From Thermoanaerobaculia bacterium (GTDB lineage: Bacteria; Acidobacteriota; Thermoanaerobaculia; Thermoanaerobaculales; Sulfomarinibacteraceae): a stretch of 64,000 nucleotides of DNA. The stretch's first letter is position 1. Each line of letters starts with the position of its first letter. Made by a program: the position numbers and the translations under genes. The stretch lies in contig JAMOWA010000008.1 in NCBI GenBank assembly GCA_027061805.1, forward strand, positions 86 to 64,085, in the 5' to 3' direction. Shown here piece by piece: positions 40,450 to 49,808 of the stretch. A model generated the notes under the pieces. It was not told where the DNA came from, did not search any database, and worked only from the letters and a program-made list of their open reading frames with translations.

Positions 40450-42096
40450 ATGGGCGAAGGAATCAAGCAACTGTGGAAGAAGGAAGACTGGTGGGCCGTG
40501 TGGCTCGGGCTCGGCATCGTCGTGATGGCGCTGTCCGTCTACCTGAGCGGCGGCACGATCAAGGGCTGGGCCGTGACGCCCGGGAAGTGGTCGAGCCTCT
40601 CGCAGCTCGGCGCCGACCTGGCGAAGCACGGCATGGGGTACCTGACGATCTTTCTGCTGTTCGGGATCGTCTTCACCGTCTCCATTGCCATCATGGGCCG
40701 GAAGGTCAAGGAGTACATCCCGGGCTACACGATGCTCTTCGTGGGCTCCCTGATCATCTTCTATCTGGCCTCCAACAAGTTTGTGAAGGGGACGCTTCAT
40801 CTGGGTGCCCCGCTGCTCGCCCTGATCATCGGGCTCATCATCGGAAACATCAAGAAGATGCCGGAGTGGTTCCAGACGAGCCTGCGGACCGAGTACTACA
40901 TCAAGACCGGAATCGTGCTGCTGGGCGCCACCCTGCCCCTGACGCTGATCTTCTCGGCGGGACCGGTGGCCTTCATCCAGGCGACGATCGTCTCGGTCTG
41001 CACCTGGCTGACGATCTTCCTGGCCGCCACCAAGATCTTCAAGCTCGAGCCGCAGTTCGGGGCGGTCCTGGGTGCCGGCGGGGCGGTCTGCGGCGTCTCG
41101 GCCTCCATCGCAGTGGGCGGTGCGGTCAAGGCCCACAAGGACCACATCGCCATCGGCATCGCCATCGTCTCGGTGTGGGCGATCGTCATGATCCTGATCC
41201 TGAGCGTGGTGGTGAAGTTCATGGTGCCCGCAGCCATCTCTCCCGGTGAGGCGGGGGCCTGGGTGGGGACCTCGGAGTTCGCCGACGCGGCGGGGTTCGC
41301 CGTGGTGGCAGAGCTGGCCGACGTGATCGAGTCCGGTGCGCTCACCGGCCCCGGTGGCGCCCCCCTCAACCCGGACGATCCCATCAACACCTTCACCCTC
41401 ATGAAGGTGATCGGTCGGGACATCTGGATCGGCATCTGGTGCCTGATCCTGGCCATCGTCTCGGTGGTCTTCTGGGAGAAGAAGGACGCGTCACAGAGGG
41501 CAGTGGGAGCCGGGATCATCTGGGAGCGGTTTCCCAAGTTCGTGCTGGGGTTCTTCGCCGCGTCCATCATCATGACCGCCGTCACCGCCAACCCGCCCGG
41601 GGACTGGGTGGGGAAGGCCAAGCTGAAGGGGACCTTCAAGTCCAAGGCCGAGAAGATCGTCTACGCGGCCGACTTCTCCAACTACGTGGTGCCGCAGGAG
41701 CTCGCGGACAAGTTCGCCATCGAGGGTGACACCATCACCTTCAAGGGCAAGATGAGCATCCACGAGTTCGAGATCCTCAAGGCGGCGATCCCGCAGGACG
41801 ATCCGAACCGCAAGGACAAGATCGGCGCGCTCAAGCAGCTGCGGCATTCTTCGGACTGGTTCTTCTCCGATCTGAAGCCGAAGCTGATCAACCCGATCAA
41901 GAAACTCAGGTCGTGGGCCTTCGTCCTGTGCTTCCTCTGCATCGGGCTGTCCACGCGCTTCGCCGACCTGCTGACCTTCGGCCTGAAGCCGTTCTGGGCG
42001 TTCACCATCGGTGTGCTGGTCAATGTGCCCCTCGGGTACTTCCTGTCCACCGTGGTGTTCTCGAAGTTCTGGTCGAACATTTCGAGCCTCATGTGA
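40450..42096 (+). CDS. YeiH/UPF0324 (putative sulfate-exporter, PSE) family transporter with large hydrophilic insertions
   Basis: ATG 40450 after AGGAGG. 548 aa. Multi-TM core typical of YeiH ([15 protein letters not shown]). About 110-aa soluble insert ([19 protein letters not shown]...KLRSWAF) before the last TM helices. Confidence 0.65.
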
Positions 42097-42151
42097 GGCA
42101 CGGGGGGAAAACAGGACCTGCGGGTCTGGGGAGACAAGGAAAGGAGTTGCC

Positions 42152-43345
42152 ATGAGTGAGAAGAATCGAGCAACACCGCTGCTTGACGAGCTCGAGAAGG
42201 GGCCGTGGCCGAGCTTCGTCAAGGAGATCAAGAAGGAGTCCGAACGGCCCATGGTCAGGGACCTGCTCGGGTTGCTGGAGCGGTCCTACGAGGAGCACAT
42301 CGGACACTGGAAGCACGGCGGCCTCGTGGGCGTCATGGGGTACGGCGGCGGTGTCATCGGGCGGTACTCCGACCTGCCCGAGGAGTTCCCGGAGATCGCG
42401 GAGTTCCACACCTACCGCGTGAACCAGCCCTCCGCCTGGTTCTACACCTCCGACGCACTCAGGACCCTGTGCGACATCTGGGACAGGCACGGGTCGGGCC
42501 TGACGAACATGCACGGGTCCACGGGTGACATCATCTTCCTCGGGTCCAAGACCGAGGCGCTCGAGCCCTGCTTCGCCGACCTGACCGAGGCGGGCTTCGA
42601 CCTGGGCGGCTCGGGTTCCGACGTGCGGACGCCGAGCTGCTGCGTGGGACCCGCCCGGTGCGAGTGGGCCTGCTACGACACGCTGGAGGCCTGCTACGAC
42701 ATCACGCAGACCTACCAGGACGAGCTGCACCGGCCGGCCTTCCCCTACAAGTACAAGTTCAAGTTCGCCGGGTGCCCCAACGACTGCGTGGCCTCCATTG
42801 CACGGTCGGACATGTCGGTGATCGGCACATGGAAGGACAACATCCAGATCGACCAGGAGCAGGTCCGCGAGTATGCGGCGGGCGGCACGGACATCGAGGC
42901 CGAGATCTGCGAGATGTGCCCCACCGGCTGCATCACCTGGAACGGCGAGCAGCTGGTCATCGACAACTCGGAGTGCGTCAAGTGCATGCACTGCATCAAC
43001 GTGATGCCCAGGGCGCTCAAGCCGGGCAAGGAACGCGGCGCGACGATCCTCATCGGCGCCAAGGCGCCCATCATCGGAGGGGCGCTGCTGTCCTCCGTCT
43101 TCGTTCCGTTCCTCGAGATGGAGCCCCCGTACGAGGACCTCAAGGAGCTGGCCGAGGCCATCTGGGACTTCTGGGGCGAGTACGGCAAGAACCGCGAGCG
43201 CGTGGGCGAGTTCATCCAGCGCGTCGGTCTGGGCAACTTCCTGGAGGAGATCGGCCTGGATCCCGTTCCCGAGATGGTGGCCCATCCCAGGACGAACCCG
43301 TACATCTTCTTCGACGAAGAGCTCGAAGAGGACGAGGACGAGTAG
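42152..43345 (+). CDS. dsrA: Dissimilatory sulfite reductase alpha subunit
   Basis: N-terminus [20 protein letters not shown]. Siroheme/cluster Cys [12 protein letters not shown]. Ferredoxin insert [14 protein letters not shown] and CPTGC..CVKCMHC. Confidence 0.95.
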
Positions 43346-43354
43346 GAGGTATCC

Positions 43355-44431
43355 ATGGCTGTGGCAACCAGAAAGACGGACATCGGACCGCCGAATTACA
43401 AGCAGTTCCTTCCGCCCATCATCCAGAAGAACTACGGCAAGTGGGCGTACCACGAGATCCCCGAGCCGGGCGTCATGGTGCACGTGGCCGAGTCGGGCGA
43501 CAAGCTCTACACGGTCCGGGCGGGCACGCCTCGCCTGCTGGCCATCACCACCATCCGGGCGTTCGCGGACCTGGCGGACAGGTACTGTGACGGGTACATC
43601 CGCTGGACCAGCCGGCACAACGTGGAGTTCCTCCTGACCGATCCCTCGAAGATTCCGGCGCTCAAGAAGGACCTGGAGGAGCTGGGATTCCCGGTGGGCG
43701 GTACGGGCAACGCCATCTCCTCCATCGTCCACACCCAGGGGTGGGTCCACTGCCACTCCGCGGCCACGGACGCCTCCGGGGTGGTGAAGAGCCTCATGGA
43801 CGAGCTCTTCCCTCACTTCGTCAACATGGACCTGCCCGCCAAGCTCCGGGTGGCCTTTGCCTGCTGCCTGAACATGTGCGGCGCGGTGCACTGCTCCGAC
43901 ATCGCGGTCCTGGGCGTCCACACCAGGGCACCCACCATCGACCACGACGAGCTGCCCAAGGTCTGCGAGGTGCCGACCCTGGTCTCCTCCTGCCCCACCG
44001 GCGCCATCCGGCCGGCCACCGTGGACGGCAACGCCTCGGTGGAGATCGAGGAGGAGCAGTGCATGTACTGCGGCAACTGCTACACTGTCTGCCCCTCGGT
44101 GAAGATCAACAACGCCGAGACCGACGGCATCTCCATCTGGGTGGGCGGCAAGGTCTCCAACGCCCGCTCGGAGCCCAAGTTCTCCAAGCTCGCCATCCCG
44201 TACCTCCCCAACAATCCGCCGCGCTGGCCGGAGGTTGTGGAGGCGGTGGTCAACATCGTCAACGTCTACGCCCAGAACGCCCGGAAGCACGAGCGCCTGG
44301 GAGAGTGGATCGACCGCATCGGCTGGCCGCGCTTCTTCGAGCTCACCGGCATTCCGTTCACCAAGTACCACATCGACGACTTCAAGCACGCCGGCGAGAC
44401 CTACAAGCGGTCCGTCCAGCTGAAGCACTAG
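43355..44431 (+). CDS. dsrB: Dissimilatory sulfite reductase beta subunit
   Basis: [43 protein letters not shown], and ferredoxin domain [18 protein letters not shown]. Confidence 0.95.
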
Positions 44432-44440
44432 GAGGCGATC

Positions 44441-44689
44441 ATGAGTCAACCCACCGTGGAAGAGGTCGCCGACGCCATGTATGACCTGGTGAAGGCCACC
44501 CATGGCAAGAAGAACCTCAAGGCCATGGACCTCACCAAGGCCATGATCGAGAAGTTCGGCGACGACGCCGTGGACAAGAAACTGTGCAAGCTCGCGATCC
44601 GCCAGCTCATCGACTCGGGCCGGTGCATCTACAGCTACTTCGGTGGGTCGTTCATCACCCTGCCACCGGACGAGGATTCCGGGGGCTGA
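44441..44689 (+). CDS. dsrD: DsrD (small winged-helix protein of reductive-type dsr operons)
   Basis: 82 aa directly after dsrB. Lys-rich N-terminal part and a C-terminal ..LIDSGRCIYSYFGGSFITL segment comparable to the DsrD ..LEYWSSGSTTMYGL region. Call rests on size, position and pattern. Confidence 0.7.
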   Translation: MSQPTVEEVADAMYDLVKATHGKKNLKAMDLTKAMIEKFGDDAVDKKLCKLAIRQLIDSGRCIYSYFGGSFITLPPDEDSGG

Positions 44690-44698
44690 TGTCGAACC

Positions 44699-44733
44699 GT
44701 ACGGGGGCCGGGGTGCCCGGCCCCCGTACTTTT
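44699..44733 (+). terminator. Very strong hairpin + T-tract after dsrD (terminator/attenuator or mRNA-stabilising element)
   Basis: 14-bp perfect GC-rich stem gtacgggggccggg/cccggcccccgtac, 3-nt loop, then TTTTCC. Only 18 nt before the next ATG. Confidence 0.7.
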
Positions 44734-44751
44734 CCTACCAGGAGGCACAGC

Positions 44752-45195
44752 ATGGCCAAGGACAAGATGAGCGGTCCGGAACGCGTGGAACATACGATCC
44801 AGGTGCTTCGCGACTGGCAGAAGCTGGAGCGGGAAGCCATCGAGAACACCGCCGAGATCATGGAGAAGACCGGCAACCCGCTGATCCGGCAGTTCATGGA
44901 GATCATCCGCAACGACTCGGTGCAGCACCACCGGGTGCAGCAGTTCATCATCGACAGTCTCACCACCACGCCGGTGAAGCTGACGCCCGACGATCTCGCC
45001 GAGGTCTGGGACGCCATCGCGGCCCATGACGAGGTGGAGCGCAGGACCATCGAGATCGCCAAGGAGCTCAAGGAGGAGTGCCGCTTCTTCGTGCAGAAGG
45101 CCCTCCTGGAGTACCTGATCATCGACGAGGAGAAGCACGACCACCTCCTCGGCATGCTCGAGGAGTTCAAGAAGAAACTGTATCCCTACGGCTGA
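44752..45195 (+). CDS. Ferritin-like/rubrerythrin-like four-helix protein of unknown function
   Basis: 147 aa, all-helical. AGGAGG RBS. Paired acidic/His segments (EAIENTAE, VQHH, DEVE, EEKHDH). Family assignment is tentative. Confidence 0.5.
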   Translation: MAKDKMSGPERVEHTIQVLRDWQKLEREAIENTAEIMEKTGNPLIRQFMEIIRNDSVQHHRVQQFIIDSLTTTPVKLTPDDLAEVWDAIAAHDEVERRTIEIAKELKEECRFFVQKALLEYLIIDEEKHDHLLGMLEEFKKKLYPYG

Positions 45196-45232
45196 CCGTT
45201 CCGGCAGGGAGTGGGACGGGGGAGGCGTTCAG

Positions 45233-46975
45233 ATGGGTCTGTTGAAGAAGAAGGACACGAAGAAATCCAAGAGCCGCATGGCCCGGCTGGCGGGCGGCGG
45301 GGGTGGTTCGGGATCCGAGATCTCGCCGCTGAGGCCACAGTACGTGGAGAAGCTGCCCCCCTGCGTGGGGCACTGCCCCTCGGGGAACGACATCCGTGGC
45401 TGGCTGACCATCGTCGCCCAGCGTGACAAGCTCGGGCTCTCCATGGAGGAGGCCTGGGACCGCGCCTGGAGGATCGAGGTGGAGACCAACCCGTTCCCCG
45501 CCGTGATGGGGCGGGTGTGTCCCCATCCCTGCGAGGGCGAGTGCAACCGCAAGGTCAAGGACGGCGCGGTGGCCATCAACTCGGTGGAGCGCCTTGTGGG
45601 GGACTGGGGCCTCGAGCGGGGCCTCGCGCTTCCCACGCTGGACGTGGGAGGGCCCTTCGCCGAGAAGATCGCCGTGATCGGCGCCGGCCCCTCGGGGCTC
45701 TCGGTGGCGTACCAGCTGGCCCGCCGCGGCTACGGCGTGACCGTCTTCGAGGCCCTGCCCCATCCCGGCGGCATGCTCCGGTACGGGATCCCGGTCTACC
45801 GGCTGCCCCGGGAGGTCCTGGACGCCGAGATCCAGAAGATCCTCGACCTCGGCGTGGAGCTCCGCTGCGGTGTCAGGGTGGGTGAGGACATTCCCCTGGA
45901 CGAGCTGCGCAAGGAGTTCTCGGCCATCTACCTGGGCATCGGCGCCCACCAGGGCCGGAAGATGGGCATCCCGGGCGAGGACGGCGAGGGCGTCTACACC
46001 GGGACCGAGTTCCTCAGGCGGGCCAACGCCGGGGAACCTGTGACCGCGGGTGAGCGGGTGGTCATCATCGGTGGCGGCGACACGGCCGTGGATGCCGCCC
46101 GCGTCTCCAAGCGCCTCACCGCCGACTCGGCGGCCGTCTCGAAGCGGGCGGGCGCCCAGGTGACGATCCTGTACCGCCGGACCCGGGCCGAGATGCCGGC
46201 CATCGAACGCGAGATCGAGGAAGCCCTGGAGGAGGGAATTGAGATCGAGTTCCTTGCGGCACCCATCAAGATCGAGCGGGACGCCGACGGGAAGGTGACG
46301 AAGATGATCGTCCAGCGGATGGAGCTCGGGGAACCCGACGAGTCGGGCCGCCGGCGCCCGGTTCCCGTGGAGGGCGACACCTTCGAGCTGGAATGCGACA
46401 CGGTGATCATGGCCGTCAGCCAGCAGCCCGAGCTGGCACCGCTGGCCAGGGCCCTCGGCGTGGAGGGTTCCTGGCTGGACTCCGACGAGTGGGGCCGCAC
46501 CGGCATCGACGGCATCTGGGCCGGTGGCGATGCCCTGGGCCTGGGCCTGGCCACCATCTCCATCGGCCAGGGCCGCAAGGCGGCCGAGTCCATCCACGCC
46601 ACGCTCCGCGGGGAGGAGCTGCCCGAGGGCGACACGCGGCCGCCCATCGGGCCCGACGGCCTCAAGATCGACTGGTACCCGCCCCTCGAGCGGAACGAGA
46701 GGACCGTGCTCTCCCCCGAGGAGAGGCTGGCCCGGCCGCTCGACGAGATCGATCTGGGGATCACCAGGGAGCAGGGCCTGGACGAGGTGATGCGCTGCTT
46801 CTCCTGCGGCCTGTGCTTCAACTGCGAGAACTGCTGGATGTACTGCCAGAACTCGTGCTTCAAGAAGGTGCCCGATCCCAGCCCCGGCAACTACTACACC
46901 ATCAGCCTCGGCACCTGTGACGGGTGCAAGAAGTGCTGGGAGGAGTGCCCCTGCGGGTACCTCGAGGGGCACTAG
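45233..46975 (+). CDS. dsrL: DsrL (GltD-like NAD(P)H:acceptor oxidoreductase with C-terminal ferredoxin domain)
   Basis: CVGHCP..VCPHPCEGEC. Two Rossmann motifs, VIGAGPSG and VVIIGGGDTAVDAA. C-terminal CFSCGLCFNCENC and CDGCKKCWEECP. Confidence 0.85.
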   Translation: MGLLKKKDTKKSKSRMARLAGGGGGSGSEISPLRPQYVEKLPPCVGHCPSGNDIRGWLTIVAQRDKLGLSMEEAWDRAWRIEVETNPFPAVMGRVCPHPCEGECNRKVKDGAVAINSVERLVGDWGLERGLALPTLDVGGPFAEKIAVIGAGPSGLSVAYQLARRGYGVTVFEALPHPGGMLRYGIPVYRLPREVLDAEIQKILDLGVELRCGVRVGEDIPLDELRKEFSAIYLGIGAHQGRKMGIPGEDGEGVYTGTEFLRRANAGEPVTAGERVVIIGGGDTAVDAARVSKRLTADSAAVSKRAGAQVTILYRRTRAEMPAIEREIEEALEEGIEIEFLAAPIKIERDADGKVTKMIVQRMELGEPDESGRRRPVPVEGDTFELECDTVIMAVSQQPELAPLARALGVEGSWLDSDEWGRTGIDGIWAGGDALGLGLATISIGQGRKAAESIHATLRGEELPEGDTRPPIGPDGLKIDWYPPLERNERTVLSPEERLARPLDEIDLGITREQGLDEVMRCFSCGLCFNCENCWMYCQNSCFKKVPDPSPGNYYTISLGTCDGCKKCWEECPCGYLEGH

Positions 46976-46996: not shown

Positions 46997-48400
46997 ATGC
47001 AACTCGAGACACCCCGCGTGGTGGTGGCCGGTCTGGCCGGGGACAGCGGCAAGACGCTGGTGACCCTCGGCCTGGCCCGGGCCCTCACCGTGAGGGGTGT
47101 CCGTGTTGCACCGTTCAAGAAGGGGCCCGACTTCATCGACACGGGCTGGCTTTCCGCCGCTGCGGGAACCGTGGCCCGGAACCTGGACACCTTCCTGATG
47201 CCGCCGGAGGGGATCGGCGAGGCCGTGGCCCGGTCGCTGCCCGCCGACCTGGTCCTCGTGGAGGGCAACCGCGGGCTCTACGACGGCATGGATGCTGCGG
47301 GCAGCTGCTCCACGGCCGAGCTGGCGGTGCTCCTGGGGGCGCCGGTGCTCCTGGTGGTCGATGTCACCAAGAGCACACGGACCGTGGCGGCCCTGGTGAA
47401 GGGGTGCCAGGTGCTGGATCCCCGGGTGGACCTGGCCGGCGTGATCCTCAACCGGGTGGGGACCGCCCGCCAGGAGCGTGTGATCCGCGACGCCATCGCC
47501 GCCGCGGGCGGTCCGCCGGTGGTGGGCGCCATCCCCCGGATGCGGGGAGAGGATCCCCTGCCGGGACGGCACCTGGGTCTCGTCACGGCCGTGGAGCGAC
47601 CGGACAGCGAGGCGGCCGTGGAACGGGCCGCTGCCGTGGTGGCGGAGCACGTGGACCTGGAGGCCGTGCTGGCCGTCGCCCGCACCGCGGGGCGGGTGGA
47701 GCTTCCGGAGATGTCCATGACCACCGGACGGAGGGCCACCCGCGTGGCGGTCTTCAGGGACGAGACCTTCAGCTTCTTCTACCCCGAGAACCTGGAGGCC
47801 CTGGAGGCGGGGGGGGCGGAGCTGCTCTGGGTCTCGCCCCGGCAGGACCGGCCGCTGCCCCCGGACGTGGATGCCGTCTACATCGGTGGAGGCTTCCCCG
47901 AGCTGGCGGTGCGGGAGCTGTCCGCGACCTCCGAGCTCAGGGACTCCCTGGCCGGGGCGTGTTCACGGGGGCTGCCGGTCTTCGCCGAGTGCGGCGGCCT
48001 GATGCTCCTCGCCCGCGAGCTGGTGGTGGACGGGACCGCCTGGCCCATGCTCGGGGTCCTGGACCTGGTGGTGGAGCACACGGACAGGCCCCGGGGACAC
48101 GGGTACGTCCTGGGGACGGTGGACCGCCCCAACCCCTTCTTCCCCGTCGGACAGGAGATCAGGGGCCACGAGTTCCACTACTCTCGGGTGGTGGGCGGGA
48201 GTGACCGGAACACCACGGTGATGACGCTCCAGCGCGGGACCGGTGTGGAGGCGGGACGTGACGGTGTGGTGCGGGGCAACATCTGGGCCTCCTACACCCA
48301 CCTCCACGCCCTGGGAACGGTCATCTGGGCCGGAGGCTTCCTCGAGGCCGCGGTGTCGTGGCACAACGACGGGCCGGGGACGGCCGTGGCATGGGCCTGA
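46997..48400 (+). CDS. dsrN: DsrN (cobyrinate a,c-diamide synthase family; siroheme amidase in dsr context)
   Basis: 467 aa. CbiA-type N-terminus VVVAGLAGDSGKT and a C-terminal glutamine amidotransferase domain (ECGGLM). Confidence 0.85.
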   Translation: MQLETPRVVVAGLAGDSGKTLVTLGLARALTVRGVRVAPFKKGPDFIDTGWLSAAAGTVARNLDTFLMPPEGIGEAVARSLPADLVLVEGNRGLYDGMDAAGSCSTAELAVLLGAPVLLVVDVTKSTRTVAALVKGCQVLDPRVDLAGVILNRVGTARQERVIRDAIAAAGGPPVVGAIPRMRGEDPLPGRHLGLVTAVERPDSEAAVERAAAVVAEHVDLEAVLAVARTAGRVELPEMSMTTGRRATRVAVFRDETFSFFYPENLEALEAGGAELLWVSPRQDRPLPPDVDAVYIGGGFPELAVRELSATSELRDSLAGACSRGLPVFAECGGLMLLARELVVDGTAWPMLGVLDLVVEHTDRPRGHGYVLGTVDRPNPFFPVGQEIRGHEFHYSRVVGGSDRNTTVMTLQRGTGVEAGRDGVVRGNIWASYTHLHALGTVIWAGGFLEAAVSWHNDGPGTAVAWA

Positions 48401-48909
48401 AGGAGCAGGTCATGGAGCTTCTCGCGGCAGGGCGCCAGGACGAGCTCGCCGGGCTTGCCGCCGGGAACCGGAGGGTGGTCCGTCACCTGGTGGGACGCCT
48501 GTGGGATCCGGACCCCGTGGTCCGGCGGGCGGCGGCCCGGGCCCTTGGCGAGGCGGCGGCCCTCCATCCGGACCTGGGCCGCGACGTGGTGCGGCGCCTG
48601 CTGTGGGCGCTCAACGACGAGTCCGGGGCGGACGGCAGGGATGGCCTGCTGGGCCTGGGCTGGATCGGCCGCGCCGCACCGGGGCTGCTGGCCCCGCACG
48701 TGGGTGCCCTGGTGGAGATGGCCTGGGACGACGGGCTCAGGGTCCGCCTCCTGGAGGCCCTGTGCGTGGCGGCGGAGGGTGCACCGGAGCTGCTCGAGCC
48801 GCACGTGGATCGGCTCGGGGAATGGATCGACGAATCCAATGACGACGAGGTCCGCCTGTGGCAGCGGCTCAGGGCCCTCGTCGAAGGGGGGGGCACACAT
48901 GCCAGCTGA
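48391..48909 (+). CDS. HEAT-repeat protein
   Basis: ATG 48391 overlaps the dsrN stop. DPDPVVRRAAARALGEAA-type repeats. Confidence 0.6.
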   Translation: MGLKEQVMELLAAGRQDELAGLAAGNRRVVRHLVGRLWDPDPVVRRAAARALGEAAALHPDLGRDVVRRLLWALNDESGADGRDGLLGLGWIGRAAPGLLAPHVGALVEMAWDDGLRVRLLEALCVAAEGAPELLEPHVDRLGEWIDESNDDEVRLWQRLRALVEGGGTHAS

Positions 48910-49489
48910 GAGCCTGAAGGAACGGATCGAACGGTGCCGGGCCCGGGTGGAGGAGAAACCGGACTCCGCCGTGGCCCACTACAACCTGGGTCTTGCCTAC
49001 ACCCAGCGGGGCTACGTGGACCGGGCGGAGGCCGAGTACCTCAGGGCCGTGGAGCTGGACCCGTCGCTGGGGGAGGCCTGGATCAACCTCGGGGGCGCCC
49101 GGCTGCTCAAGTGGGACTTCGAGGGGGCGCTGGAGGCCGTGAAGCGGGGCGTGGAGCTCCGGGACGACCACCCCGTGGCCCACTACAACCTCGGGCAGGC
49201 GTGCCTCTACCTGGGCGATGCCGAGGGCCTCGTGGCGGCCAACCGGCGGGTCATCGAGCTGGAGCCGGAGAACGGCGCCGCCCACTACTTCCTGGCAGTG
49301 GGGCTCCTGGCCCTGGAACGCCGGCAGGAGGCCGAGGCCGCGCTGTCCCGGGCCATGGCCCTGGGGCACCGGCCGTCACCCGAGTTTCTGAAGAAGCTCA
49401 ACCGGCCTCCCGCGCAGGGGCCGGCAACCCTGACTCTGAACGAACAATCGGGAGCCGCCGAGGCCCCAGGAACAGAAAAGGAGGTTTGA
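48899..49489 (+). CDS. TPR-repeat protein
   Basis: ATG 48899. Repeated AHYNLGLAY / AWINLGGA / AHYNLGQA / AHYFLAVG TPR signatures. Confidence 0.75.
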   Translation: MPAESLKERIERCRARVEEKPDSAVAHYNLGLAYTQRGYVDRAEAEYLRAVELDPSLGEAWINLGGARLLKWDFEGALEAVKRGVELRDDHPVAHYNLGQACLYLGDAEGLVAANRRVIELEPENGAAHYFLAVGLLALERRQEAEAALSRAMALGHRPSPEFLKKLNRPPAQGPATLTLNEQSGAAEAPGTEKEV

Positions 49490-49490
49490 G

Positions 49491-49808
49491 ATGCCCACAT
49501 TCACGTACGGAGATCTCTCGATCGAGGTGGACGAGGACGGCTTCATGCAGGAGCCGGAGCAGTGGAACGAGGAGGTGGCCAAGGCACTGGCGACGACGGA
49601 AGGTGTCGATGAGCTCACCGACGAGCACTGGAAGGTCGTCAACTACCTTCGGGAATACTACCTCCAGTTTGGCGTGGCTCCCATGATCCGCAAGCTCTGC
49701 AAGGAGACCGGCTTCAACCTGAAGAAGATCTACGAGCTCTTCCCCTCCGGTCCGGCCAAGGGCGCCTGCAAGGTGGCGGGGCTGCCCAAGCCCACCGGCT
49801 GCGTCTGA
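49491..49808 (+). CDS. dsrC: DsrC (TusE/DsrC/DsvC family) with both conserved C-terminal cysteines
   Basis: 105 aa. Ends CKVAGLPKPTGCV (Cys-x10-Cys-Val). Strong RBS AAAGGAGG. Confidence 0.95.
   Translation: MPTFTYGDLSIEVDEDGFMQEPEQWNEEVAKALATTEGVDELTDEHWKVVNYLREYYLQFGVAPMIRKLCKETGFNLKKIYELFPSGPAKGACKVAGLPKPTGCV

Follow-up and report, generated by a model that had tools for sequence, protein, structure and literature searches.

A dsrABD-dsrL2 cluster with a divergent DsrD homologue in an uncultured acidobacterium, probably the core of a reductive dissimilatory sulfite-reductase system

Putative sulfate-/sulfite-reducing Acidobacteriota matter for the cycling of sulfur and carbon in peat, soil and marine sediment. 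Their dsrAB genes belong to the reductive bacterial-type branch and occur with DsrD and DsrL-2 (PMC6018796, PMC8528874, 10.1101/2023.06.27.546762), and the Thermoanaerobaculia Dsr lineage has been placed in the reductive branch (Flieder 2021, PMC8528874). DsrD, which activates DsrAB (PMC8794893), is a marker of reductive systems, while DsrL, originally described from sulfur oxidisers, has since turned up alongside reductive DsrAB as well (PMC7596348, PMC8794893); the background given by the original prediction on this DNA was correct on these points. In Desulfurella, DsrL-2 is specific for NADP(H), and proteins of this type are known from reducers and disproportionators as well as from some true sulfur oxidisers (PMC7596348). 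The combination of dsrABD and dsrL2 is already described and is read as reductive (Hausmann 2018; Flieder 2021; Löffler 2020; Ferreira 2022; Diao 2023), and an acidobacterium with the same genes carried out sulfate reduction in a bioreactor (Dyksma & Pester 2023, PMC10564751).

The window, i.e. the whole stretch of 64,000 nucleotides that was analysed, contains a dsr cluster whose features are collected in Table 1. All the genes that had been listed, together with the hairpin, were found where the original prediction had put them. The mechanical dsrA ORF begins at 42011 and its matches to PDB structures begin at ORF residue 53-54; the gene probably starts at 42152 rather than at 42011. DsrA shares 62% identity with DsrA of D. 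vulgaris and 74-89% with that of Thermoanaerobaculia and Sulfomarinibacteraceae MAGs. A search of the genome (3.1 Mb, about 69% GC, 96.9% complete) showed that dsrA is single-copy and that one dsrAB set is present. The surroundings were compared in 80 related loci, found with a closer, 14-sequence alignment of the family of the 82-aa ORF. In these, dsrN is syntenic in 67 and dsrL in 65, and the TPR gene was found in 41. The position of dsrN relative to dsrD is that seen in dsrABDN of D. vulgaris. DsrC has the complete pair of redox-active cysteines near its C-terminus, C93 and C104, in the sequence '...ACKVAGLPKPTGCV'. A YeiH-like transporter and an Hmc-like module lie upstream of the cluster, as do DsrMK-type modules.

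Table 1. Features of the dsr cluster, with positions in the window.
Feature	Coordinates	Strand	Size and evidence
dsrA	42152..43345	+	397 aa from ATG at 42152; TIGR02064 595 bits (cut-off 393)
dsrB	43355..44431	+	358 aa; TIGR02066 515 bits (cut-off 341.5); NIR_SIR and ferredoxin domains
divergent dsrD homologue	44441..44689	+	82 aa; predicted winged helix; hhalign against canonical DsrD, AF2, synteny
GC-rich perfect hairpin followed by TTTT, terminator- or attenuator-like	44699..44733	+	14-bp stem; between dsrD and the 147-aa gene
conserved four-helix protein ('ferritin-like')	44752..45195	+	147 aa; Pfam, AF2, Foldseek
dsrL, assigned to type DsrL-2	45233..46975	+	580 aa; NF009410 587 bits; Fer4_20 and Pyr_redox_2
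dsrN (sirohaem amidase, CobB-like)	46997..48400	+	467 aa; NF002204 424 bits; GATase_3 and CbiA
TPR-repeat protein, start uncertain	48455..49489	+	TPR Pfam families
dsrC	49491..49808	+	105 aa; PF04358 140 bits; TIGR03342 126 bits

The dsrL ORF is intact and lies about 0.8 kb 3' of dsrB, between the gene of the four-helix protein and dsrN; genes for pyruvate/ketoisovalerate:ferredoxin oxidoreductase (POR/VOR) are not adjacent to it. Pfam places Fer4_20 at residues 42-129 and Pyr_redox_2 at 145-447. The N-terminal NfnB-like Fe-S region contains C44, C48, C96, C100 and C104, the FAD site GAGPSG is at 150 and the NAD(P) site GGGDTA at 280; a linker of about 60 residues leads from the flavoprotein body to the first C-terminal cysteine, and 12 cysteines between 522 and 574, CxxCxxCxxxCP included, make up the C-terminal 2x[4Fe-4S] region. 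The claim of a full-length dsrL with both nucleotide-binding motifs and a C-terminal ferredoxin domain was therefore correct, and both domain order and gene context are those of DsrL rather than of a stray GltD homologue. Inspection of the NAD(P)H-specificity residues showed YRR, the motif for NADP(H) in DsrL-2, at 314-316, where 'TILYRRTRAEMPA' matches, residue for residue in the alignment, 'YIVYRRTEREMPA' of NfnB (4ylf_B, Y310-R312). Ahead of YRR, the insertion with respect to NfnB is of only 10 residues. Judged by length and by the NfnB alignment, the protein has neither the ~32-aa NAD(P)-domain insertion nor the long linker of DsrL-1A. According to the criteria of Löffler 2020 (PMC7596348), these features are those of DsrL-2, a type assignment drawn from motifs, identity to published lineages and the literature.

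Between dsrD and the next gene, the hairpin has a perfect GC stem and a T-tract; a 76-nt region that includes it has a folding energy of -44 kcal/mol (z = -4.97), and none of 200 shuffles was as stable. Lying 3' of dsrD, it would probably keep the level of the dsrABD transcript above that of the downstream accessory genes. The 147-aa gene that follows sits between dsrD and dsrL in 50 of the 80 related loci, and the invariant residues of its product include E26, D55, H59, H60, H92, E96, D125, E126 and H129. The AF2 model (pLDDT 90.6) consists of four long helices. The label 'ferritin-like' is weakly supported: Pfam gave only Rubrerythrin at E 0.011, and Foldseek returned only weak four-helix or ferritin-like matches (E >= 0.06, TM <= 0.43).

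An AGGAGG ribosome-binding site lies 5 nt ahead of the 82-aa ORF, and the stop codon of dsrB is 9 nt before the ORF. PF08679 did not match it even at E <= 10, NCBIfam gave no match either, and a six-frame search of the whole genome (96.9% complete) with PF08679 was empty. Taken literally as an HMM assignment, its identification as DsrD in the original prediction thus failed. What upheld it was the comparison of profiles: hhalign aligned a family profile built from 42 sequences with an alignment of 12 canonical DsrDs over 68 columns and the full length, with a probability of 95.4% and E 1.8e-8. When the D. vulgaris DsrD sequence was used alone, the register was identical but the values fell to 7.5% and E 0.0047; the match required a diverse canonical alignment. 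PF08679 was reached at E <= 1 by 9 of the 42 family members, the best at 7.5e-4 and all below the gathering score. A PDB search with the single sequence gave only noise, and the family profile against PDB missed 1UCR, its best match being the TBPIP winged helix (E 5e-4). The AF2 model (pLDDT 89.1) is a winged helix with three helices and a beta hairpin (H-H-H-beta-beta). Counterparts of the canonical GKK, of K46/K50 and of the wing Y64...G68 are conserved, and the gene is under strong purifying selection (dN/dS 0.04-0.2). Profile-profile match, predicted fold, position and conservation identify the 82-aa product as a remote, divergent homologue of DsrD. Canonical DsrD has a YWSSGSTT motif and no cysteines (Ferreira 2022, PMC8794893), whereas the wing here is YSYFGGS, in which only Y and G align, and C49 and C62 are kept in 80 of 81 acidobacterial-type sequences, although both occur together in only 10 of the 42 members of the wider family. 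Since the curated models failed, the motif is missing and two cysteines are present, a function identical to that of DsrD is taken here as an assumption.

The distribution was assessed in 301 Acidobacteriota genomes, the phylum-level dsrA search being centred on a MAG labelled Acidithiobacillales. Thirty-five of them contain dsrA; all 35 have the 82-aa DsrD type and none has a DsrD of the PF08679 type, which in the same run was detected in both positive-control genomes with canonical DsrD, taken from another phylum. A DsrL-like gene was found in 31 of the 35, a count that leans partly on adjacency to dsrD, because NF009410 is not DsrL-specific and also comes near its cut-off on fusion proteins of about 1500 aa in Desulfobacterota-like genomes. 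Many of the dsrA and dsrL matches contain in-frame stops; recoding was considered and rejected, as each is simply the stop codon that ends the gene, past which the model match had run. The 82-aa type is thus the sole DsrD candidate in the acidobacterial lineage, and its pairing with DsrL holds for all or nearly all Acidobacteriota that have dsrAB. The co-occurrence of dsrD and dsrL, which the original prediction singled out, is not unusual: the combination, in print since 2018, is what this lineage normally has, and the cluster is an ordinary one. By comparison, genomes with canonical DsrD had a DsrL-like gene near dsrD in none of 7 cases, and a few genomes have the 82-aa type without any DsrL, in a co-occurrence sample that is small and confounded by phylogeny. 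One reading of this pattern, which we put forward tentatively and hold to be rather unlikely, is that the 82-aa proteins are a distinct, unannotated DsrD subfamily of more than 2600 members, invisible to PF08679, whose wing reads Y[ST]YxGGS and whose acidobacterial clade has a conserved Cys49/Cys62 pair, and that this subfamily co-evolved with DsrL-2, adapting DsrAB to NADPH-driven electrons rather than serving as a plain canonical activator. It may, for example, help DsrL-2 to dock, or its cysteine pair may gate activation by redox state.

As for the pathway, the cluster probably forms the core of a dissimilatory sulfite-reductase system that is reductive and of bacterial type. The uncultured acidobacterium that carries it has Thermoanaerobaculia MAGs as its nearest relatives. 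DsrAB is called reductive on the strength of its motifs, its identity to published lineages and the literature. Sulfite would be reduced by DsrAB with DsrC, and DsrN would amidate sirohaem. By analogy with canonical DsrD, the 82-aa protein would bind DsrAB and activate it allosterically. At the Rossmann domain with the YRR motif, DsrL-2 would oxidise NADPH, and the electrons would pass through its FAD and Fe-S clusters to the C-terminal ferredoxin domain and from there to DsrAB. Elsewhere the genome contains sat (362 bits), aprA (919 bits), aprB and an HdrA/QmoA-like (qmoA-like) gene, which with the DsrMK-type modules upstream would complete a sulfate-respiration pathway. The genome, 96.9% complete, has no dsrEFH, the sole PF02635 match (24.5 bits) being the selenium-metabolism protein YedF. 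A DsrD homologue, a YRR-bearing DsrL-2, one dsrAB set and a complete sat-aprBA-qmo complement in the absence of dsrEFH are together read as reductive (Diao 2023; PMC10564751). In this respect the earlier view that the direction cannot be read from gene content was too cautious, although it retains some force with regard to disproportionation.

The same genes might serve the disproportionation of sulfur compounds or a switchable pathway in which DsrL-2 works with NADP(H) in either direction depending on conditions. All of the sequence is compatible with this, the range of organisms in which DsrL-2 is known fits it (PMC7596348), the presence of DsrAB, DsrD and DsrL-2 in non-sulfate-reducers has been explained by the reduction of sulfite that disproportionation forms internally (Ferreira 2022, PMC8794893), and Hausmann 2018 and Flieder 2021 left the option open (PMC6018796, PMC8528874). 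However, the proposed 'switchers' carry two dsrAB sets (Diao 2023) as against the single one here, YedF is the only DsrE-family match in a genome in which dsrEFH was not found, and the lone physiological study of such an acidobacterium showed sulfate reduction (PMC10564751); we therefore regard a disproportionating or switchable system as unlikely.

It is far less plausible still that a small DNA-binding regulator, or some other partner, fills the dsrD slot and that the 82-aa winged-helix protein is thus not a functional DsrD. Besides the silence of PF08679 and NCBIfam and the differences in motif and cysteines, family members matched the MCM4, TBPIP and DsrD models about equally often (10, 10 and 9 of 42), and Foldseek with the 82-aa model returned only generic winged helices (E about 0.03), with DNA-binding ones at the top, Z-alpha of ADAR1 included, and without 1UCR in its top 50. 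On the other hand, the profile-profile match to DsrD is in register and full-length, dsrB lies upstream of the homologue in 76 of the 80 related loci, a strict slot across phyla, and the 82-aa type and the Pfam type are mutually exclusive in the 35 dsrA-positive genomes; moreover, canonical DsrD itself acts on DsrAB despite its DNA-binding-like fold (PMC8794893). A reverse pathway like that of sulfur oxidisers, with DsrAB oxidising DsrC-bound sulfur to sulfite and DsrL handing the electrons on to NADP+, was raised as a hypothesis by Hausmann 2018 by analogy with Desulfurivibrio and recalls the two Chlorobi oxidisers that employ DsrL-2 (PMC7596348), but it is highly improbable here, given a DsrD homologue directly 3' of dsrB where all known rDsrAB oxidisers lack dsrD (PMC8794893, Diao 2023), no dsrEFH in the genome, and a DsrA close to that of D. 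vulgaris and closer to that of the Thermoanaerobaculia Dsr lineage in the reductive branch (PMC8528874). A scan of viral contigs with the DsrA alignment for oxidative rDsrA (phage rdsrA) gave no match.

The reductive reading leaves the cluster as one more example of the arrangement that defines putative sulfate-/sulfite-reducing Acidobacteriota, and it exposes an annotation gap, since Pfam and NCBIfam miss the DsrD of the whole lineage; none of 2663 homologues of the 82-aa protein carries a Pfam domain. Because this DsrD is invisible to PF08679, pipelines that rely on that model to mark reductive systems would score such genomes wrongly as dsrD-negative and could misjudge the direction of their pathway. 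In public records the lineage's DsrD is labelled 'hypothetical protein' and even 'alcohol dehydrogenase class IV'.

Among the known systems, NfnB of Thermotoga maritima (PDB 4YLF chain B) is homologous to DsrL over residues 43-463 (294 bits), and its NADPH-phosphate site Y310-R311-R312 corresponds to Y314-R315-R316; unlike NfnB, DsrL adds the linker and the C-terminal two-cluster ferredoxin domain, has no NfnA partner and is encoded within a dsr operon. With DsrL-2 of Desulfurella amilsii (PMC7596348) it shares the order NfnB-like Fe-S region, FAD/NAD(P) domains, linker and 2x[4Fe-4S] ferredoxin domain, the YRR motif and a location with reductive dsrAB and dsrD; Sulfomarinibacter DsrL is about 38% identical to the D. 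amilsii protein (Flieder 2021, PMC8528874). Canonical DsrD (PF08679; D. vulgaris DsvD, PDB 1UCR) and the 82-aa protein have in common a length of about 80 aa, the winged helix, a gene that directly follows dsrB and precedes dsrN, conserved lysines, and a Y...G wing with L-P after it, whereas the latter stays below every curated HMM threshold, has YSYFGGS in place of YWSSGSTT and contains C49 and C62 where the former has no cysteine. The closest counterparts are the acidobacterial dsr clusters of peatland SbA1-7 (PMC6018796) and of marine Ca. Sulfomarinibacter, or 'Thermoanaerobaculia Dsr lineage' (PMC8528874), which share the order dsrA-dsrB-dsrD-(conserved unknown)-dsrL-dsrN-...-dsrC, a short YRR-bearing DsrL, a two-cysteine DsrC and sat/aprBA/qmo elsewhere in the genome. 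The proteins of our cluster share 62-91% identity with their counterparts in MAGs that bear the label Thermoanaerobaculia or Ca. Sulfomarinibacteraceae, and there is no substantive difference from these clusters, of which it is another species-level member.

The dsr genes lie on contig 8 of a 3.1-Mb genome that is 96.9% complete, in a window with a G+C content of about 69%. The presence of dsrA, dsrB, dsrN, dsrC and dsrL in this cluster, as listed in the original prediction, was confirmed by HMM scans. A YeiH-like transporter gene and DsrO-like and NrfD-cytochrome genes are found 5' of the dsr genes. On the longer dsrA ORF, matches to PDB and TIGRFAM entries set in only at residue 53-58, so that translation most likely starts at the ATG at 42152. 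The mechanically called ORF opens 141 nt before it (extension 42011-42151), within the 3' end of the YeiH-like gene, whose stop is at 42096. The C-terminus of DsrC reads "...ACKVAGLPKPTGCV", so that both functional cysteines are present.

Features of the dsr cluster (window positions); the last column gives the loci carrying each gene when the window's proteins were compared by tblastn with the best 80 of 351 loci encoding the 82-aa protein
Feature	Position	Strand	Evidence and remarks	Loci
dsrA	42152-43345	+	TIGR02064, 595 bits (HMM scan); likely start	74/80
dsrB	43355-44431	+	TIGR02066, 515 bits (HMM scan); ends 9 nt before the 82-aa ORF	76/80, directly upstream of the 82-aa gene
82-aa ORF	44441-44689	+	AGGAGG ribosome-binding site; 9 nt past the dsrB stop	
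Hairpin	44699-44733		perfect 14-bp GC stem, GTG loop, TTTT tract	
147-aa ORF	44752-45195		between dsrB and dsrL	50/80, between dsrD and dsrL
dsrL, GltD/NfnB-like flavoprotein, 580 aa	45233-46975	+	NF009410, 587 bits; Fer4_20 and Pyr_redox_2	65/80, downstream of the 82-aa gene
dsrN	46997-48400	+	CobB-like, 424 bits (HMM scan)	67/80
TPR-repeat protein	48455-49489	+	HMM scan; recurrent between dsrN and dsrC	41/80
dsrC	49491-49808	+	PF04358, 140 bits (HMM scan)	61/80

The 82-aa ORF had been predicted to be dsrD, but the curated models do not recognise it as such. Neither PF08679 nor the NCBIfam models matched it, even at E ≤ 10, PF08679 gave no match in a six-frame translation of the entire genome, and PDB searches with the single sequence or a profile did not reach the DsrD structure 1UCR. 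On the other hand, the assignment is favoured by profile-profile comparison, by the predicted fold and by gene position. When the family of the 82-aa protein (42 sequences) was compared with an alignment of canonical DsrD, made of D. vulgaris DsvD (identical in sequence to PDB 1UCR), Desulfovibrionaceae DsrDs and seven diverse DsrDs from genomes of another phylum, a match with a probability of 95.4% and an E value of 1.8e-8 was obtained over 68 columns, in register throughout the 82-aa protein. The GKK motif, K46, K50, the wing's Y and G and the L-P after them are all matched in the family, whereas the canonical YWSSGSTT corresponds to YSYFGGS in the 82-aa protein. AlphaFold2 predicts a winged helix with confidence (pLDDT 89), made of three helices and a beta hairpin; with this model, Foldseek retrieved only generic winged-helix domains, the Z-alpha domain among them, at E about 0.03. 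The gene occupies the exact position of dsrD in the dsrABDN arrangement of D. vulgaris. It is a real gene under strong conservation, with a dN/dS of 0.04-0.2 with respect to close relatives; 2663 homologues, none with a Pfam domain, were found in a large protein collection, and at 50% identity the family is represented by 129 sequences. The 82-aa ORF is a divergent DsrD overlooked by current HMMs.

Among public annotations of the subfamily homologues (proteins P0004, P0009, P0065, P0082 and others), neither the name DsrD nor a precomputed Pfam domain was found. Most entries are nameless or "hypothetical protein", and some are mislabelled as "alcohol dehydrogenase class IV" or "N6-adenosine-specific RNA methylase IME4". 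Cysteines C49 and C62 occur in 80 of 81 DsrD sequences of the acidobacterial clade, a count that is biased because C62 belonged to the search pattern; in the unbiased set they occur together in only 10 of 42 sequences.

The 351 loci mentioned in the table came from a scan in which each species was represented by one genome. The best 80 derive mostly from MAGs labelled Acidobacteria/Acidobacteriota, Thermoanaerobaculia, Vicinamibacteria or Ca. Sulfomarinibacteraceae, and a few are labelled Deltaproteobacteria, Myxococcales, Pseudomonadota, Eisenbacteria or Riflebacteria. In a sample independent of the 82-aa ORF (301 genomes, drawn evenly from the same phylum), dsrA was above the cut-off in 35 genomes. 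All 35 contain the 82-aa type of DsrD, usually adjoining dsrB, and none gave a PF08679 match, while two canonical-DsrD control genomes were both detected in the same run. Therefore, the 82-aa protein is the DsrD of Acidobacteriota. An NF009410-type gene was above the cut-off in 31 of the 35, mostly within 1-2 kb of dsrD, and pairing with dsrL is thus the norm in this phylum; the predicted co-occurrence of dsrD and dsrL in one cluster holds at this locus and well beyond it.

Concerning taxonomic labels, JBLMYG010000057.1 (related locus L025) is labelled Acidithiobacillales bacterium, and a phylum-level draw around its genome gave Acidobacteria-labelled MAGs (genomes G003 and G004); this label therefore conflicts with the taxonomy of the genome collection. 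The "Deltaproteobacteria", "Pseudomonadota" and "Chondromyces" labels of several MAG loci with the cluster may be similarly unreliable.

DsrL is of full length, as predicted, and shows the three features by which Löffler et al. 2020 (PMC7596348) include a protein as DsrL: the gene is complete and belongs to an organism with dsrAB; the domains follow the expected order, with N-terminal Fe-S cysteines (C44/48/96/100/104), an FAD site at 150, an NAD(P) site at 280 and then the C-terminal ferredoxin domain (12 cysteines within 522-574, including CxxCxxCxxxCP); and the neighbouring genes are without POR/VOR. As regards the residues for NAD(P)H specificity, ILYRRT of DsrL falls, position by position, on IVYRRT in the alignment with Thermotoga NfnB; the NfnB segment contains Y310-R311-R312 (numbering counted along the alignment). 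These NfnB residues grip the 2'-phosphate of NADPH, and a YRR motif distinguishes DsrL-2 from DsrL-1, which has none (PMC7596348). Where DsrL-1A bears about 32 extra residues with respect to NfnB, our DsrL has an insertion of only 10. By its YRR motif, the protein would fit type DsrL-2. NF009410 is not specific for DsrL, since near-cut-off scores were also given by fusion proteins of about 1500 aa. Two tandem NF009410-type genes in a canonical-DsrD genome (G095:C129:7805-11802; 724 and 695 bits) score higher than true acidobacterial DsrL; dsrD of that genome is on another contig.

In seven canonical-DsrD genomes, no NF009410-type gene was found near dsrD. Five genomes of the acidobacterial type lack an adjacent dsrL; three of them have an NF009410-type gene elsewhere and two have none. 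This DsrD type and DsrL-2 may be functionally linked, but the genome comparison is confounded by phylogeny.

The hairpin is separated by 10 nt from the dsrD stop and by 18 nt from the next start codon; its 76-nt surroundings have a fold energy of -44 kcal/mol (z = -5). It resembles a terminator or attenuator, and the proportion of dsrABD to dsrL-N-C transcripts could depend on it. The following gene had been described as ferritin-like. A conserved four-helix protein is indeed predicted (four long helices, pLDDT 90.6), but it resembles rubrerythrin and ferritin-like proteins only weakly (E 0.011 in Pfam; in Foldseek, E ≥ 0.06 with TM ≤ 0.43 and an rmsd of about 20 Å). Residues E26, D55, H59, H60, H92, E96, D125, E126 and H129 are invariant and could make a metal site. 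The protein probably belongs to the "syntenic conserved unknowns" shown by Hausmann et al. 2018 in their Fig. 2.

The genome has one dsrAB set. On its contig C45 (69.6-82 kb, locus L114), the gene order is aprB, aprA (919 bits), HdrA/QmoA-like gene, and sat comes about 9 kb beyond; the sulfate-activation genes and the dsr cluster are therefore on separate contigs. The sole DsrE-family match in the genome is a YedF protein, and dsrEFH is therefore absent. DsrA shares 62% identity with D. vulgaris DsrA and 74-89% with that of Thermoanaerobaculia and Sulfomarinibacteraceae MAGs. Flieder et al. (PMC8528874) assigned the DsrAB of this lineage to the reductive bacterial-type branch, as part of "uncultured lineage 9". 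The roles of DsrD and DsrL would be those of their homologues.

Both dsrD and dsrL were reported in seven peatland Acidobacteria by Hausmann et al. 2018 (PMC6018796), who found that acidobacterial DsrD retains the hydrophobic core of DvDsrD and showed conserved unknown genes within the cluster. The same was described in marine Thermoanaerobaculia, with a YRR-type DsrL-2 (Flieder et al. 2021, PMC8528874). Desulfurella DsrL-2 is NADP(H)-specific, and dsrABDL-2 arrangements are described (Löffler et al. 2020, PMC7596348); DsrD activates DsrAB, and genomes with DsrD and DsrL-2 were discussed (Ferreira et al. 2022, PMC8794893). Acidobacteriota are among the phyla with a full pathway including dsrD and dsrL-2, read as reductive (Diao et al. 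2023, 10.1101/2023.06.27.546762), a DsrD+DsrL clade without DsrE is known (Klier et al. 2024, PMC11406059), and such an acidobacterium reduced sulfate in a bioreactor (Dyksma and Pester 2023, PMC10564751). The finding of dsrD with dsrL is therefore already explained by these reports. Of mild remaining interest are the two conserved cysteines in the acidobacterial clade and the wing motif of the subfamily, which differs from that of canonical DsrD.
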